In this document: positions 8,982 to 38,489 of the stretch, piece by piece | How the letters are laid out: each line of letters opens with the position of its first letter | How positions within the stretch are numbered: position 1 is the first letter of the stretch | Virus record (IMG/VR): IMGVR_UViG_2687453623_000005 | Strand: one strand, 5' to 3' | DNA length: 39,782 bases | Source: a virus | Taxonomy: Duplodnaviria; Heunggongvirae; Uroviricota; Caudoviricetes | Position numbers and translations under genes: made by a program | The notes under the pieces: model-generated | The model's input: only the letters and a program-made list of their open reading frames with translations | Databases searched by the model: none | Told to the model about the DNA's origin: nothing

Positions 8982-9941
8982 ATGAAAATTTGTATCGACG
9001 ACGGCTCCACCAACATCAAGCTGGCATGGACTGAGAATGGCGAACGCCGCAACGCCATCAGCCCGAACAGCTTCAAGTCGGAATGGTCTGCGCCGTTCGG
9101 TGGCATGCAGCCCGCGAACTACATGCTTGATGGCGTGCGCTATGGTTTTGATCCGGTTAGCGATCGCTTTGTCCAGACGACCGACACGCAATACCAGTAC
9201 AGCGATGTGAATGTAATCGCCATTCATCACGCGCTGGTCAAATCAGGCATCACGCCACAGGAGGTGGATGTGGTTGTCACCCTGCCACTGAGCGAGTATT
9301 TCGACACAAACGCACAGCCGGACATGGCCAACATCAACCGCAAAAAAGCGAACGTTATGCGCCCGGTGGAATACCAGAACGGCGAAGCATTCACTATCCG
9401 TAACGTGCGGGTTATGCCTGAATCCATTCCGGCTGGCTTTAAAGCACTGGCTGACATGAGTCCGTTTGAATCCCTGCTGATTGTGGATTTAGGCGGAACC
9501 ACGCTGGATGTGGCAAAGGTTCAAGGGCAACTGGCAGGTATCAGCCAGGTGTTTTGCGATCCACACGTAGGCGTTTCCCTGATGGCCGATGCCGTACTGT
9601 CGGTGATGGCCACTAACGGTATGCGCACCAGTCACCACATCGCCAATACCATTATCGAACATCGCCATGATGAAGCCTGGCTGCGCCAGCACATCCACAA
9701 TGACGCGCATTACGCCAGCCTGATGGCGGTTATTCGTGAAAAGGAAGAAACACTGAAACAACGCGTGATCCGCGCGCTGGCGGTTTTTTCGGGTTACGGG
9801 CGGGTGATGGTTGTCGGTGGAGGGGCGGAGATTGTGGCACCCGCTATCCGCGAAGTCTGCGGAGTTAATGCGACTTTCATCGCGGACGGGGTGCCACAGT
9901 TTGCTCTGGTTAATGGGCTGTACGCAATGGACAAGGAGTAA
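8982..9941 (+). CDS. parM: ParM/StbA-like actin-type segregation ATPase, 319 aa
   Basis: N-terminus MKICIDDGSTNIKLAW and later IVDLGGTTLD and VVGGGAE motifs align with plasmid R1 ParM as I recall it. Confidence 0.8.
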   Translation: MKICIDDGSTNIKLAWTENGERRNAISPNSFKSEWSAPFGGMQPANYMLDGVRYGFDPVSDRFVQTTDTQYQYSDVNVIAIHHALVKSGITPQEVDVVVTLPLSEYFDTNAQPDMANINRKKANVMRPVEYQNGEAFTIRNVRVMPESIPAGFKALADMSPFESLLIVDLGGTTLDVAKVQGQLAGISQVFCDPHVGVSLMADAVLSVMATNGMRTSHHIANTIIEHRHDEAWLRQHIHNDAHYASLMAVIREKEETLKQRVIRALAVFSGYGRVMVVGGGAEIVAPAIREVCGVNATFIADGVPQFALVNGLYAMDKE

Positions 9942-9945
9942 ACCA

Positions 9946-10260
9946 ATGACGACACCAACCAGACGGATAAGTTTCTATCTGAAGCCCGCCGCCGTCAAGA
10001 GTGAACAGGAGGCGTGCAATTACCTCGATAGCCTGCCAGCCTCCGAACGCAGCCGCGCGCAACGCGCGGCCTTTCTGGCTGGGCTAGCGCTCATAAAGCG
10101 CAACCCAGCATTTGCCTACTGGATGGCCGAATGGCCAGAGGACAACCTCCCCTTCAATACCGTTAGCATCAAGGAAACATACCAGGATAATCAGCCTAGC
10201 GGAGTTGAATGCAATTTTTATAAAATAAAAAAGAATATTCAGACCTTATTCCCAGAATAA
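9946..10260 (+). CDS. parR: ParR-like centromere-binding adaptor, 104 aa
   Basis: N-terminal segment ISFYLKPAAV...LDSLPASERSRAQRAAFLAGLAL resembles R1 ParR. ATG at 9946 with AGGAG ribosome-binding site. Confidence 0.7.
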   Translation: MTTPTRRISFYLKPAAVKSEQEACNYLDSLPASERSRAQRAAFLAGLALIKRNPAFAYWMAEWPEDNLPFNTVSIKETYQDNQPSGVECNFYKIKKNIQTLFPE

Positions 10261-10343
10261 TCTGATAATTGTATGTGAACTAATAAAATACAGACCAACA
10301 CATCATTCTGGCACCCTTGCTAACAGGGTGCCAATGTTTCAAA

Positions 10344-11186
10344 TCATGATGAAATTGCCGAAGTTTTTTTATCGTGCTGAAGTACCGCAAATGCCATTAA
10401 AACCTCAAGAGAATAGCGGCGATAATACTTAACAAAACCATAATAAAATACTCGGGATGCAGCAATACAAAACAAGAGAAGAAAACAAAAAGGTAACAGT
10501 CTGATATTTATATCTATTAAAAAGGATAGAAGGAGCAGGAACATAAGCAACCAGACTGAAGCGAGAAAAACAAATGTAATGTTTCTACAAAAACCATACA
10601 AAGCAACATAGTTTTGCATTTTCACCTGATGATTTTTAGAATGTTCATACACATAATGATAAGCAAGGCGAAAAAGATCGCCCCTCAAGCCCTTACGTCG
10701 ATATAGCGTAGATACAGAAAAAACATTTATATAACCATCTCGTATTTGCGGCCAAAAGACTTTAATAAGTATAGAATGCAGTGTGGTTTTATGATGTTCT
10801 GCTTTATCAAAAGCTGATACAGGAAATAAAAAAACTCCACGAATAAAATTAACTATACTGAACTTAGTATTATGTCGTTTTATTTTCAGGGAGCTTCTTT
10901 TAGAAAACAGATAAATTGAAGGATACCCAAGTTTACTGTTCATGTATTTTTCAATTAAACAGGATGATAGAATAGATATGAAGTGACCTGAAATATATGA
11001 TAGAACGATTAATACCACATATATAAATACACTTATTATTTCTTTATATTTCAGGATATGGTTAAGAATACCTTCTATATAAACAGGGTTAATTTCAATA
11101 GAAAACAAAAAAAGGATAAACAGGAATAACCCACCTGGAATTAGATAGCCCAAAAAGTCATAAAATGAAAACGGATTCTGTGTCAC
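10344..11186 (-). CDS. Polytopic membrane protein, 280 aa, unknown function, very AT-rich
   Basis: Multiple hydrophobic segments. GTG start preceded by GGGGGA. Downstream gene of a two-gene minus-strand operon. Confidence 0.6.
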   Translation of the reverse strand: MTQNPFSFYDFLGYLIPGGLFLFILFLFSIEINPVYIEGILNHILKYKEIISVFIYVVLIVLSYISGHFISILSSCLIEKYMNSKLGYPSIYLFSKRSSLKIKRHNTKFSIVNFIRGVFLFPVSAFDKAEHHKTTLHSILIKVFWPQIRDGYINVFSVSTLYRRKGLRGDLFRLAYHYVYEHSKNHQVKMQNYVALYGFCRNITFVFLASVWLLMFLLLLSFLIDINIRLLPFCFLLLFCIAASRVFYYGFVKYYRRYSLEVLMAFAVLQHDKKTSAISS

Positions 11187-11225
11187 ACTTCCCCCTGTGT
11201 TACTTGTAAATTAAAGGGTAAAACA

Positions 11226-11723
11226 TTATTTGTTTTTCCGTAAAGGATTAGCTTTCCATCTTCTTACTAACCATTCGAATTCTTGATATGTAGTATCCGA
11301 ATTAATGCTTTCTCTGATTGCTTTAATTAATGGCTCGGCAATATCATATGTCTCTACAACTGTTGTGTAAGATGTTCTTTTTATCATTTTTTCATCATAA
11401 ATACCTTCACGAATACTTACAGCAACTCGCTCGTAAAAATTTAAAATATATTGAAATTTTCGACGCTCGGCCATTTCTTCATCTGTTATTATGCAACCAT
11501 CACAAGGAAAAACATAAGAACGAAATGATTTGCCTGAACGATGCACTTGTTTCAGGGTATGCAATGACTCTATATATTGCATATCTTGCCGACTCTCAAA
11601 AAGAAAGTTGGCCGTTTGAGTTTTTTTTGCGGTACGCACATTGTAGATAATGGTTCCAATGGCAACCAAAACGCCAAGCAGAACAATAGCATTGCTGATG
11701 ATTTGTAGTGTTATTGGGTTCAT
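11226..11723 (-). CDS. Single-pass membrane protein, 165 aa: N-terminal TM helix plus soluble domain, unknown function
   Basis: N-terminus ITLQIISNAIVLLGVLVAIGTIIY is hydrophobic. Upstream gene of the operon. Confidence 0.6.
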   Translation of the reverse strand: MNPITLQIISNAIVLLGVLVAIGTIIYNVRTAKKTQTANFLFESRQDMQYIESLHTLKQVHRSGKSFRSYVFPCDGCIITDEEMAERRKFQYILNFYERVAVSIREGIYDEKMIKRTSYTTVVETYDIAEPLIKAIRESINSDTTYQEFEWLVRRWKANPLRKNK

Positions 11724-19292: not shown

Positions 19293-19546
19293 TGAAAGTG
19301 AAGGCACTGGAAGGCGACACCGTGGATTCGCTCTGTTTCCGGTACTACGGCACGACACAGGGCGTCACCGAAAAGGTGCTGGATGCCAACCCCGGACTCT
19401 GTCAGCAGGTATTTCTGGACGCCGGGCAGGAAGTGGAGATGCCGGAGCCGGAGAAGAAGAAACGAGAAATGATTCAGTTGTGGGGGAGTAGCAGTGAGCA
19501 CCATTCAAACAGGGATCACAGAGCAGGTTATTGCGTGGCTCTTTGA
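19292..19546 (+). CDS. X: Tail protein X-like (LysM-type), 84 aa, C-terminally extended and overlapping the holin start by 53 nt
   Basis: LEGDTVDSLCFRYYG resembles P2 gpX. Start ATGA overlaps L stop. Confidence 0.75.
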   Translation: MKVKALEGDTVDSLCFRYYGTTQGVTEKVLDANPGLCQQVFLDAGQEVEMPEPEKKKREMIQLWGSSSEHHSNRDHRAGYCVAL

Positions 19547-29159: not shown

Positions 29160-29990
29160 ATTAATCGCTCTTTTACAGTGCATTATATACTTTGAACGGT
29201 CTGTAATAAACACCCGCTATATTATCGCAGAGTTAGACCCTGTATCCTGAACATTAATACCAGACAATACATGACTGAAGGCACTGGAAATTCCATGTTC
29301 GCCAGTTGTTCACTCCATAATATTGCTGTAACCAAGTCGAACATCTTTCACATAACGGAATCAAACCGTAATCGAGATTAACACGCCCGTAATATGTCTA
29401 TACGAATGCCGGGACAGCGCATTCCATGTACTGAACAGCATGAACAGTACCGCCAAGAGCGAATACCTGTAATACAACCTGAGTTCACCATTCATTGTAC
29501 CAGCAGATAACGCAGTGCACCAACATCTCCTGCTGAAGGTTTTCTGGTGGTGGTGTAAAATTCGGACCAGTCGCTTTCAAAACCATAACCATCACGGGCT
29601 GAACGATAAAAAATACCGCCATTTTTATAATTAATCCGAAACTGAGCTGCAGGACAACTTCCGTCTCCATATAAAAATGAATAATTAACGTTGATGCACC
29701 ACCAATATTTGCGTTATAGGCTCCGCTACTCCAGTTCCATCCAACTGCTTTATCACCATTAACGGTGCTTCCTGTTTTCCTAAGGCAAACGCACCAACAT
29801 GACTTGCTTTTAATGTGATATCGGAGGAACCATCAAAAGCCACATTGCTTATTTTCCTGGCAGTTTTTAATTTTGCAGCTGTAGAAGCATTGCCGGATAG
29901 TTCACCAGAAAGGCCACCGCTGAATGTTTGTCGATTAGTCCAGGTATTCGCTGTACTGAGTAACGGTATTTTCTCCCCGCTTGTGCCGAG
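29160..29990 (-). pseudogene. Alternative tail-fibre C-terminal variable region (H'), disrupted by at least two frameshifts
   Basis: Reverse-strand translation matches the plus-strand H C-terminus in three different frames. Only a 61-aa ORF (29485..29670) survives. Confidence 0.5.
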
Positions 29991-30070
29991 TTCTCGTAAA
30001 CCGAGGTTTTAAATAATGGCCGTTTCTGGCCTGCATGGCATGATTTGCGCTTTTGGACGGGAGATTCAGT

Positions 30071-30670
30071 GTGCTGATTGGCTATGTAAGGGTATCAACA
30101 AATGACCAGAATACAGACCTGCAACGAAACGCTCTTGTTTGTGCAGGATGTGAACAAATATTTGAAGATAAATTAAGCGGGACAAAGACAGACCGACCGG
30201 GATTAAAACGCGCTTTAAAGCGCCTTCAAAAAGGTGACACGCTGGTTGTCTGGAAACTGGATCGCCTCGGGCGAAGCATGAAACATCTGATTTCTCTCGT
30301 CGGGGAACTACGGGAGCGAGGGATTAATTTTCGCAGTCTGACCGACAGCATAGACACATCTTCTCCAATGGGGCGTTTTTTCTTCCACGTGATGGGTGCC
30401 CTGGCTGAAATGGAACGTGAATTAATTGTTGAACGTACACTGGCCGGGCTGGCGGCAGCGCGCGCAAGGGGGCGCACAGGCGGACGTCGACCGAAGCTGA
30501 CAAAAGAACAGCATGAGCAAATAGCAAGGCTAATCAAAAACGGGCACGACAGAAAACAACTGGCAATAATTTACGGCATTGGCACATCGACGATTTATCG
30601 TTATCACCCTGTAGGCGATATACAGACTGAAGAAACAACCGGGCAGACTCAGGAAAATGAAAACCGCTAA
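30071..30670 (+). CDS. Serine recombinase, DNA invertase of the Gin/Pin/Cin/Hin family (GTG at 30071; track ORF starts at TTG 30053)
   Basis: LIGYVRVSTNDQNTDLQRNAL...LVVWKLDRLGRSMKHL is near-identical to Mu Gin and e14 Pin as recalled. Confidence 0.95.
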   Translation: MLIGYVRVSTNDQNTDLQRNALVCAGCEQIFEDKLSGTKTDRPGLKRALKRLQKGDTLVVWKLDRLGRSMKHLISLVGELRERGINFRSLTDSIDTSSPMGRFFFHVMGALAEMERELIVERTLAGLAAARARGRTGGRRPKLTKEQHEQIARLIKNGHDRKQLAIIYGIGTSTIYRYHPVGDIQTEETTGQTQENENR

Positions 30671-37591: not shown

Positions 37592-37852
37592 ATGTTCCGT
37601 TGTCCGCTTTGTGGCGCATCTGCCCGTATCCGCACCAGTCGTCCGGAAAATGATTCAAACACCGTGCGGCAAAAGTATTACCAGTGTAACAATCTGGAAT
37701 GCGGCGTATGCTTCTCAACACTGGAAGCTTTCCATAAATTCACATCAAAACACGCCTCCGGCGTTCACTCTTCAGAAGGTATCCCGTGGCATGATCTGCC
37801 AGCTTCACACAGGGGAAACAATCAGATGAGTTTGCCTTTATCTCAGAATTAA
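37592..37852 (+). CDS. ogr: Ogr/Delta-type zinc-finger late transcription activator
   Basis: MFRCPLCGASARIRTSR...YYQCNNLECGVCF matches the Cys4 motif of P2 Ogr. Confidence 0.9.
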   Translation: MFRCPLCGASARIRTSRPENDSNTVRQKYYQCNNLECGVCFSTLEAFHKFTSKHASGVHSSEGIPWHDLPASHRGNNQMSLPLSQN

Positions 37853-38373: not shown

Positions 38374-38489
38374 GCATTCAAAGATGGACGTTATATGGAC
38401 ACTTAAAAATAAAATCCATTTATTTTCAAATGATTAAACCTCTACTTAAAGCGCCCGCAGGCGCTTTTTAGATTCAGAAAAATTGGGTA

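Follow-up and report, generated by a model that had tools for sequence, protein, structure and literature searches.

An R1-type ParM/ParR partition cassette carried as a core component by P88-like, P2-family prophages of Escherichia coli

In ParMRC partition, as carried by plasmid R1 (StbA/StbB in NR1), centromere-bound ParR caps ParM filaments, whose growth pushes plasmid copies apart; the R1 centromere, parC, is made of ten 11-bp direct iterons. P2-type phages replicate their DNA by gpA-initiated rolling circle, which yields monomeric circles. Here we describe a parM-parR cassette of the R1 type in an integrating P2-family prophage of the P88-like group (genus Xuanwuvirus, family Peduoviridae), located at positions 8982-10260 of a 39,782-nucleotide stretch of viral DNA (IMG/VR record IMGVR_UViG_2687453623_000005), the whole of which is referred to as the window. 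So far, the SXT/R391 elements and prophage CGP3 are the cases in which an element has been shown to need active partition only while it is excised. In the first case, the excised form of the integrative and conjugative element (ICE) is transient and replicates by rolling circle; srpMRC stabilises this form and is needed in no other state (PMC4489591). In the second, AlpAC, encoded by the integrated prophage CGP3 of Corynebacterium glutamicum, undergoes early induction; it tethers the circular phage DNA to actin-like filaments, and efficient CGP3 replication depends on it (PMC4446434).

The gene order of R1, with repeats followed by parM and then by parR, is also that of the window (Table 1), and database alignments place both products in the families to which a preliminary description of the sequence had assigned them, with exact coordinates. 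The parM product matches Pfam StbA_N (2.7e-82) and the ParM C-terminal domain (1.1e-68), as well as the R1 ParM structures (1mwk and others, E=1.1e-92), being 46.7% identical to plasmid R1 ParM over the alignment. The phosphate-binding/catalytic motifs DDGSTNIK, MPESIPAG and DLGGTTLD align with those of R1 ParM in the structure-match alignment. The gene is under strong purifying selection, with a dN/dS of 0.01-0.14 in 15 pairwise comparisons, and no broken copy was seen among 80 IMG/VR loci of the same phage group, in which parM is full length in 79/79 complete copies and parR is intact in 76/76.

Table 1. Positions of the cassette, its candidate sites and associated genes in the window.
Feature	Position	Strand	Basis or remarks
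gpA replication endonuclease, 940 aa	6083..8905	+	Pfam Phage_GPA 4.9e-131; EC958 annotation "replication endonuclease"
Distal 42-nt direct repeat	8839..8880		Palindromic core ACGGGACTTACGAATCCCGT at 8855-8874 (GGG-N10-CCC); within gpA 3' end
Proximal 42-nt direct repeat	8912..8953		Palindromic core ACGGGATTTCAGAATCCCGT at 8928-8947
parM, actin-fold partition ATPase, 319 aa	8982..9941	+	Pfam; PDB match to R1 ParM; dN/dS; intactness
parR, ribbon-helix-helix adaptor, 104 aa	9946..10260	+	Pfam Plasmid_stab_B; ATG 5 nt after parM stop
Perfect 9-bp inverted repeat (TGGCACCCT-N7-AGGGTGCCA)	10309..10333		Between convergent parR and first cargo gene
Hok/Gef (MokW-like) toxin gene, 46 aa	38044-38184	+	Between ogr (37592-37852) and att site

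The parR product belongs to the same Pfam family as R1 ParR (Plasmid_stab_B, StbB/ParR, 7.7e-29) and weakly matches pB171 ParR (2jd3, E=0.012). Type II partition is recognised by an actin-fold ParM/StbA-family ATPase with intact nucleotide-binding motifs and by a small ribbon-helix-helix adaptor gene directly 3' of parM; the locus has both, and judged by their sequences ParM and ParR are clear members of the type II partition families. The window ParR (104 aa) is shorter than that of R1 and differs from it by a hypervariable linker; the 39 variants found in the IMG/VR loci all have 103-104 aa, versus 116-147 aa in the relatives examined. Conservation is found in the N-terminal RRISFYLKP strand (residues 1-18) and in the C-terminal KKNIQTLFPE tail. 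Both the strand and the N-x-x-x-[LMF]-F motif of the tail are kept in eight listed divergent ParR homologues from phages, plasmids and ICEs as well as in the 39 P88-like variants, and the motif of this tail, a putative ParM-binding one, is common to the window protein and the plasmid and ICE homologues examined.

Concerning the DNA upstream of parM, the repeats mentioned in the preliminary description do exist. The two 42-nt direct repeats are 83% identical and 73 bp apart, and each contains an ACGGGA-N8-TCCCGT palindrome; the GGG-N10-CCC cores lie at -125 and -52 from the parM ATG and represent two of only three matches to this pattern in the whole 39.8-kb window, the proximal palindrome ending 35 nt before the ATG. 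They are candidate parC-like centromere/operator sites 1 (distal) and 2 (proximal), and site 2 possibly overlaps a weak promoter; a consensus scan found no strong sigma-70 promoter upstream of parM, and Rfam at gathering thresholds found no RNA element in the cassette. The same two-site layout, with a spacing of 72-73 bp, occurs in the Plesiomonas (-131/-59) and Hafnia (-128/-55) relatives, where the sequence is otherwise divergent and the predicted hairpins are weak. A scan listed the palindromes of the window as intrinsic terminators on the - strand, which is unlikely, as spacing is conserved in Plesiomonas and Hafnia and hairpin stability is not; that the GGG-N10-CCC spacing is kept while the hairpins are weak argues for protein sites rather than RNA terminators. 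As for plasmid relatives, one (L015) has three repeats upstream of its parM, again spaced by 72-73 bp, and another (L013) has R1-like iterons 11 bp apart. In contrast to the iterons of R1, the candidate centromere of the window would consist of two 42-nt units whose palindromic cores are 73 bp apart.

The element that hosts the cassette is, as previously described, an integrating P2-like prophage: integrase, Cox, gpA, portal, terminase and a P2-family capsid are all present. The window opens at the integrase stop codon and closes where serS starts, and is 99.9% identical over 29.4 kb to the dmsA–serS prophage of E. coli ST131 strain EC958; its own copy is likewise integrated between dmsA and serS. 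The preliminary description considered type II partition atypical for integrating P2-like phages, a premise that the survey of 5426 complete E. coli genomes does not bear out, since in the P88-like lineage the cassette is fixed. The cassette region was found in 1370 genomes, at 1533 places of which 1531 are chromosomal, and the gpA lineage in 1381 genomes at 1546 places, so that the linkage between both amounts to about 99%. NCBI already annotates the two genes, as ParM and as partitioning/stability protein, and Rousset et al. (2022) noted a system of this kind in one quarter of the P2-like phages of E. coli, and speculated on maintenance as plasmids. Neither the sequence observation nor the idea of an episome is therefore new to the literature, and the cassette is an annotated and ordinary part of its lineage. 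In the literature searched there was no study of cassette function, and the papers on P88, on phiSM and on P2-like phage diversity contain no analysis of it.

The position of the cassette could suggest a cargo role, as had been proposed in the preliminary description. The locus falls in the gpA-to-portal interval, which is the P2 defence hotspot of Rousset et al., and the partitioning open reading frame of phiSM was listed as a possible 'fitness' factor in the Citrobacter rodentium prophage paper; parMR might then act on the host or on competitors, by partition incompatibility with or exclusion of incoming ParMRC plasmids or phage-plasmids, or by some other host benefit. The variability of the interval points the other way. 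In a sample of 66 P88-like loci (mostly IMG/VR loci, together with other P88-like loci and the window), the segment between the parR stop and the portal gene comprises 26 unrelated sequence types of 0.9-4.2 kb, while the cassette next to it is constant. The variable segment begins within or after parR. Two ParR allele families, 52% identical (window versus P88 ParR), are divided by a recombination breakpoint after about parR codon 19, where DNA identity between the window and P88 falls sharply, and the hotspot boundary falls within parR. Presence/absence polymorphism and matches to defence families, the marks of hotspot cargo, were not seen for parMR; PADLOC gave no match for ParM or ParR, and identity as a defence system found no support. 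Moreover, parM has the candidate ParR sites in cis, immediately upstream of it, and the nearest plasmid ParMs are only about 50% identical, so that cross-reaction with plasmid centromeres is not expected. Being constant beside changing cargo, the cassette behaves as a core phage function and not as a swappable defence gene: it is a fixed core component of the P88-like (Xuanwuvirus) lineage, and a host-directed or competitive role is highly improbable.

The right edge of the cassette may be marked by the 9-bp inverted repeat that follows parR, which may act as a terminator; it fails the T-run criterion of the terminator scan. Beyond it, in the window, the variable gpA-to-portal part is filled by a two-gene cargo of low GC content (about 0.36) on the - strand, at 10344-11186 and 11226-11723, which represents one of the 26 cargo types. 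Its products are a hydrophobic protein of 280 aa, probably located in the membrane, whose PADLOC match to Csx27 is weak (1.1e-5), and a DUF4760 protein (1.8e-34); the two could be an uncharacterised defence pair.

Among deposited phages, ParM of this family is confined to the P88-like group (14 records) and to the P1-like phage-plasmid D6, whose protein is 47.8% identical. The best genuine plasmid ParM in PLSDB is just 52.9% identical, which rules out a recent acquisition from a plasmid; six PLSDB matches at 95% or above correspond to the same prophage on large replicons or phage-sized circles. The protein search shows P88-like ParMs at 92-100% identity and then a gap, all others having 62% or less. 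The next relatives come from Plesiomonas and Hafnia (62%), Serratia (57-59%) and Enterobacter ludwigii (54%), and every one of those examined is located between gpA and portal of a P2-like prophage, whereas three relatives checked at 49-52% (BLASTP) belong to an ICE, an integrated plasmid and a plasmid-like contig. It should be noted that querying the genome collection with just the one ParM protein yielded only three close relatives, the distant ones being derived from the protein search and contig look-ups. In a neighbour-joining tree the E. coli, Plesiomonas and Hafnia ParMs form a clade with a bootstrap of 200/200. Between these P2-like phages ParM identity (54-62%) exceeds that of gpA (29-56%), portal (30-47%) and the large terminase subunit (36-43%), hence the cassette is either strongly constrained or exchanged among P2-like phages.

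One further sequence, a 226-kb contig labelled Vagococcus sp. WN89Y (NZ_JBQPOM010000071.1, L005), carries a parM 97% identical to that of the window, with upstream repeats matching those of E. coli P88-like prophages; it is probably a contamination or a mislabelled assembly.

The above results also bear on the idea that the cassette is an inert relic, a non-functional leftover of past recombination with a plasmid. The shortness of ParR and the presence of two repeat units alone could be taken as signs of decay; however, selection on parM, the intact reading frames of both genes, the conserved catalytic motifs and the same cassette position across divergent phage lineages all count strongly against it, and the probability we would give to this idea is close to negligible.

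A more elaborate alternative is that P88-like phages are facultative plasmid prophages which persist for many generations as low-copy circular episomes. In such a life cycle gpA would replicate the element, ParMRC would partition it and Hok would kill the cells that lose it, integration being one of two lysogenic states. The Hok/Gef toxin gene is indeed a second plasmid-type stabilisation module of the element, of a classic kind, and a Hok/Mok-type gene is also present in the genomes of P88, Chuche and P884B11; no Sok RNA was called in the window at Rfam gathering thresholds. The same toxin family is nevertheless common in integrating Stx phages, which have homologues as well. Rousset et al. 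(2022) raised the possibility of plasmid life; in addition, a P88-like genome, complete at 34.5 kb, has been deposited as a circular E. coli 'plasmid' (NZ_CP148288.1), and the Plesiomonas relative lies on a phage-sized contig of 32 kb. Circular 'plasmid' records were rejected as specific proof of episomal life, given that a P2-like phage without par genes, Enterobacter soli pENTAS02, was deposited in the same manner.

P2-like phage-plasmids do exist. The 33.6-kb Arsenophonus nasoniae plasmid paNv_UK11, with a full set of P2-like structural genes, looks like a genuine one: there, the P2-type virion module is joined with plasmid maintenance genes, and the integrase, which is absent from the annotation, has been swapped for a plasmid RepA and a ParA-type system comprising a ParA-type ATPase and a ribbon-helix-helix protein. 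Both paNv_UK11 and D6 are obligate plasmid prophages, unlike the window element, which keeps its integrase, is chromosomal and lacks a plasmid replicon. Phage-sized circles with P2-family capsid genes were also observed among Zymomonas mobilis plasmids of ~36.5-41 kb. A phage-plasmid is recognised by an extrachromosomal prophage in lysogens and by a dedicated plasmid-type replication initiator. Here, 1531 of the 1533 cassette copies are chromosomal, the window copy among them, and the annotation of the identical EC958 prophage shows gpA as the sole replication initiator, with no theta-type or plasmid Rep gene. In P2 itself, the immunity repressor shuts off the early operon, to which gene A belongs, in the lysogen, and this also counts against a facultative plasmid state.

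The integrase, finally, is intact in all assemblies except one. The preliminary description had linked episomal life to an apparent integrase frameshift, which is present in the window, as a one-base deletion at position 935 that turns C5 into C4. The exact frameshifted sequence occurs in one of 285 near-identical copies, that of strain CD306, the rest carrying the extra C. In the main 29.4-kb block the window differs from EC958 at 30 positions, all but one of which are bases missing in the window; further single-base losses affect structural genes at 19481, 28405 and 29114, and in the tail-fibre region, next to the gene for an invertase-type recombinase (30053-30670), about 25 missing bases are densely clustered at 29165-29390. 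The frameshift looks like a homopolymer error and is probably an artefact of a long-read consensus; unique to one assembly and accompanied by other deletions, it gives no evidence for an episomal lifestyle. What stands of the earlier suggestion is that action on an episomal form is reasonable, whereas stable maintenance as an episome fits poorly with the chromosomal location and with the annotated replication genes. We consider the facultative plasmid state unlikely, and still more doubtful the stronger proposal of a dual lifestyle in which integration alternates with a low-copy, actively partitioned episome and gpA, ParMRC and Hok would form a plasmid-like maintenance kit.

A circular extrachromosomal phage genome is the sole DNA that parMR could usefully move, and since integration is the usual state of the prophage, the module is most likely of use while the phage DNA is replicating or excised, a reading to which we assign a probability of roughly 0.55. 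According to this proposal, the N-terminal ribbon-helix-helix strand of ParR would bind the two palindrome-containing repeats directly upstream of parM, and its conserved C-terminal tail would capture the ends of ATP-driven ParM filaments, which on growing would push apart, or position, copies of the circular phage genome. The substrate would be a transient extrachromosomal circle, present either after infection and before integration, or after excision during gpA-driven rolling-circle replication; the circles would be kept from loss or clumping, and efficient replication would be supported. ParR binding to the repeats, the assembly of filaments, when the genes are expressed and what the phage gains from them are all inferred. 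The evidence for coupling to the replicative phase is positional: parMR has the same orientation as gpA and starts 76 nt 3' of it, and a consensus terminator scan predicted no terminator on the + strand between them.

The comparison with the two systems known to act on excised elements is consistent with such a role. As in the SXT/R391 ICEs (PMC4489591), the carrier is an integrative element whose circle, once excised, is copied by rolling circle from an HUH-type nuclease (TraI in the ICEs, gpA in the phage), and the family strictly conserves an ATPase resembling ParM, a small adaptor and repeats upstream, with a toxin module alongside (hipAB in SXT/R391, hok in the window phage); by analogy, partition may be needed only in the transient excised state. 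The two differ in that SrpM is distant from R1 ParM and SrpR has no recognisable ParR domain, whereas the window proteins are close to the R1 type; in that the SXT/R391 carrier is a conjugative element and not a phage; and in that srpMR is co-transcribed with int, whereas parMR follows gpA. Activity has been demonstrated for SrpMRC, while the window system is known from its sequence. AlpAC (PMC4446434, PMC5539076) is also encoded by an integrated prophage and combines an actin-like filament protein with a DNA-binding adaptor that binds upstream of its own operon, where the window has its candidate sites; AlpAC acts on circular phage DNA after induction, as may parMR. It belongs to a different, distant actin-like family and to an actinobacterial host, and its role in replication efficiency was shown experimentally. 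The window system departs from R1 ParMRC itself in its carrier, an integrating rolling-circle phage instead of a theta-replicating low-copy plasmid.

Several observations weigh against the proposed partition of transient circles. It is not obvious what partition would gain the phage in a lytic cycle, at the end of which the cell lyses. The upstream region has just two repeat units, versus the ten iterons of R1 parC; across 73 E. coli-type copies, conservation is no higher in the repeat cores than in the flanks (variable positions 0.30-0.40 versus about 0.33), and 19 of these copies have a CCC-to-CCT variant in one arm. The Serratia and Enterobacter relatives have, instead of the two-site layout, a 14-20-nt inverted repeat split by 26-28 nt. 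In the tree, the wider 16-member clade with all P2-like-phage ParMs has a bootstrap of just 106/200, and a literature search by protein accession and for expression data returned nothing on the cassette.

Some further features of the window were recorded. Rfam searches at gathering level located an isrK small RNA (65 bits, 5154-5228) and a C4 antisense RNA (83 bits, 5264-5351), both on the + strand and directly 5' of a homologue of the P88 'derepression protein' (about 5408-5638); these were the only RNA elements called in the window, and the region looks like a P1 immI-style antisense-RNA/antirepressor module within a P2-like phage. A 20-bp palindrome, AAAGCGCCCGCAGGCGCTTT, is found at both prophage ends, directly downstream of serS, and is likely the att core; the positions recorded are about 38448-38467 of the window and 11198-11217 of the sequence L001, and the left copy lies directly outside the window.

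Taken as a whole, purifying selection acts strongly on actin-type DNA segregation genes in a prophage that about a quarter of sequenced E. coli strains carry, ST131, O157:H7 and O104:H4 being among the carriers. The system should be easy to test, since P88 and phiSM are inducible or spontaneously active, as described in the P88 and phiSM papers. If the dual lifestyle were true, P88-like phages would be the first phage-plasmids of the P2 family that also integrate, and the spontaneous activity described for the related phage phiSM would have one possible explanation. If, as we favour, parMR partitions or positions circular intermediates, the idea of active partition needed only in the excised state would be extended to a major enterobacterial phage family.

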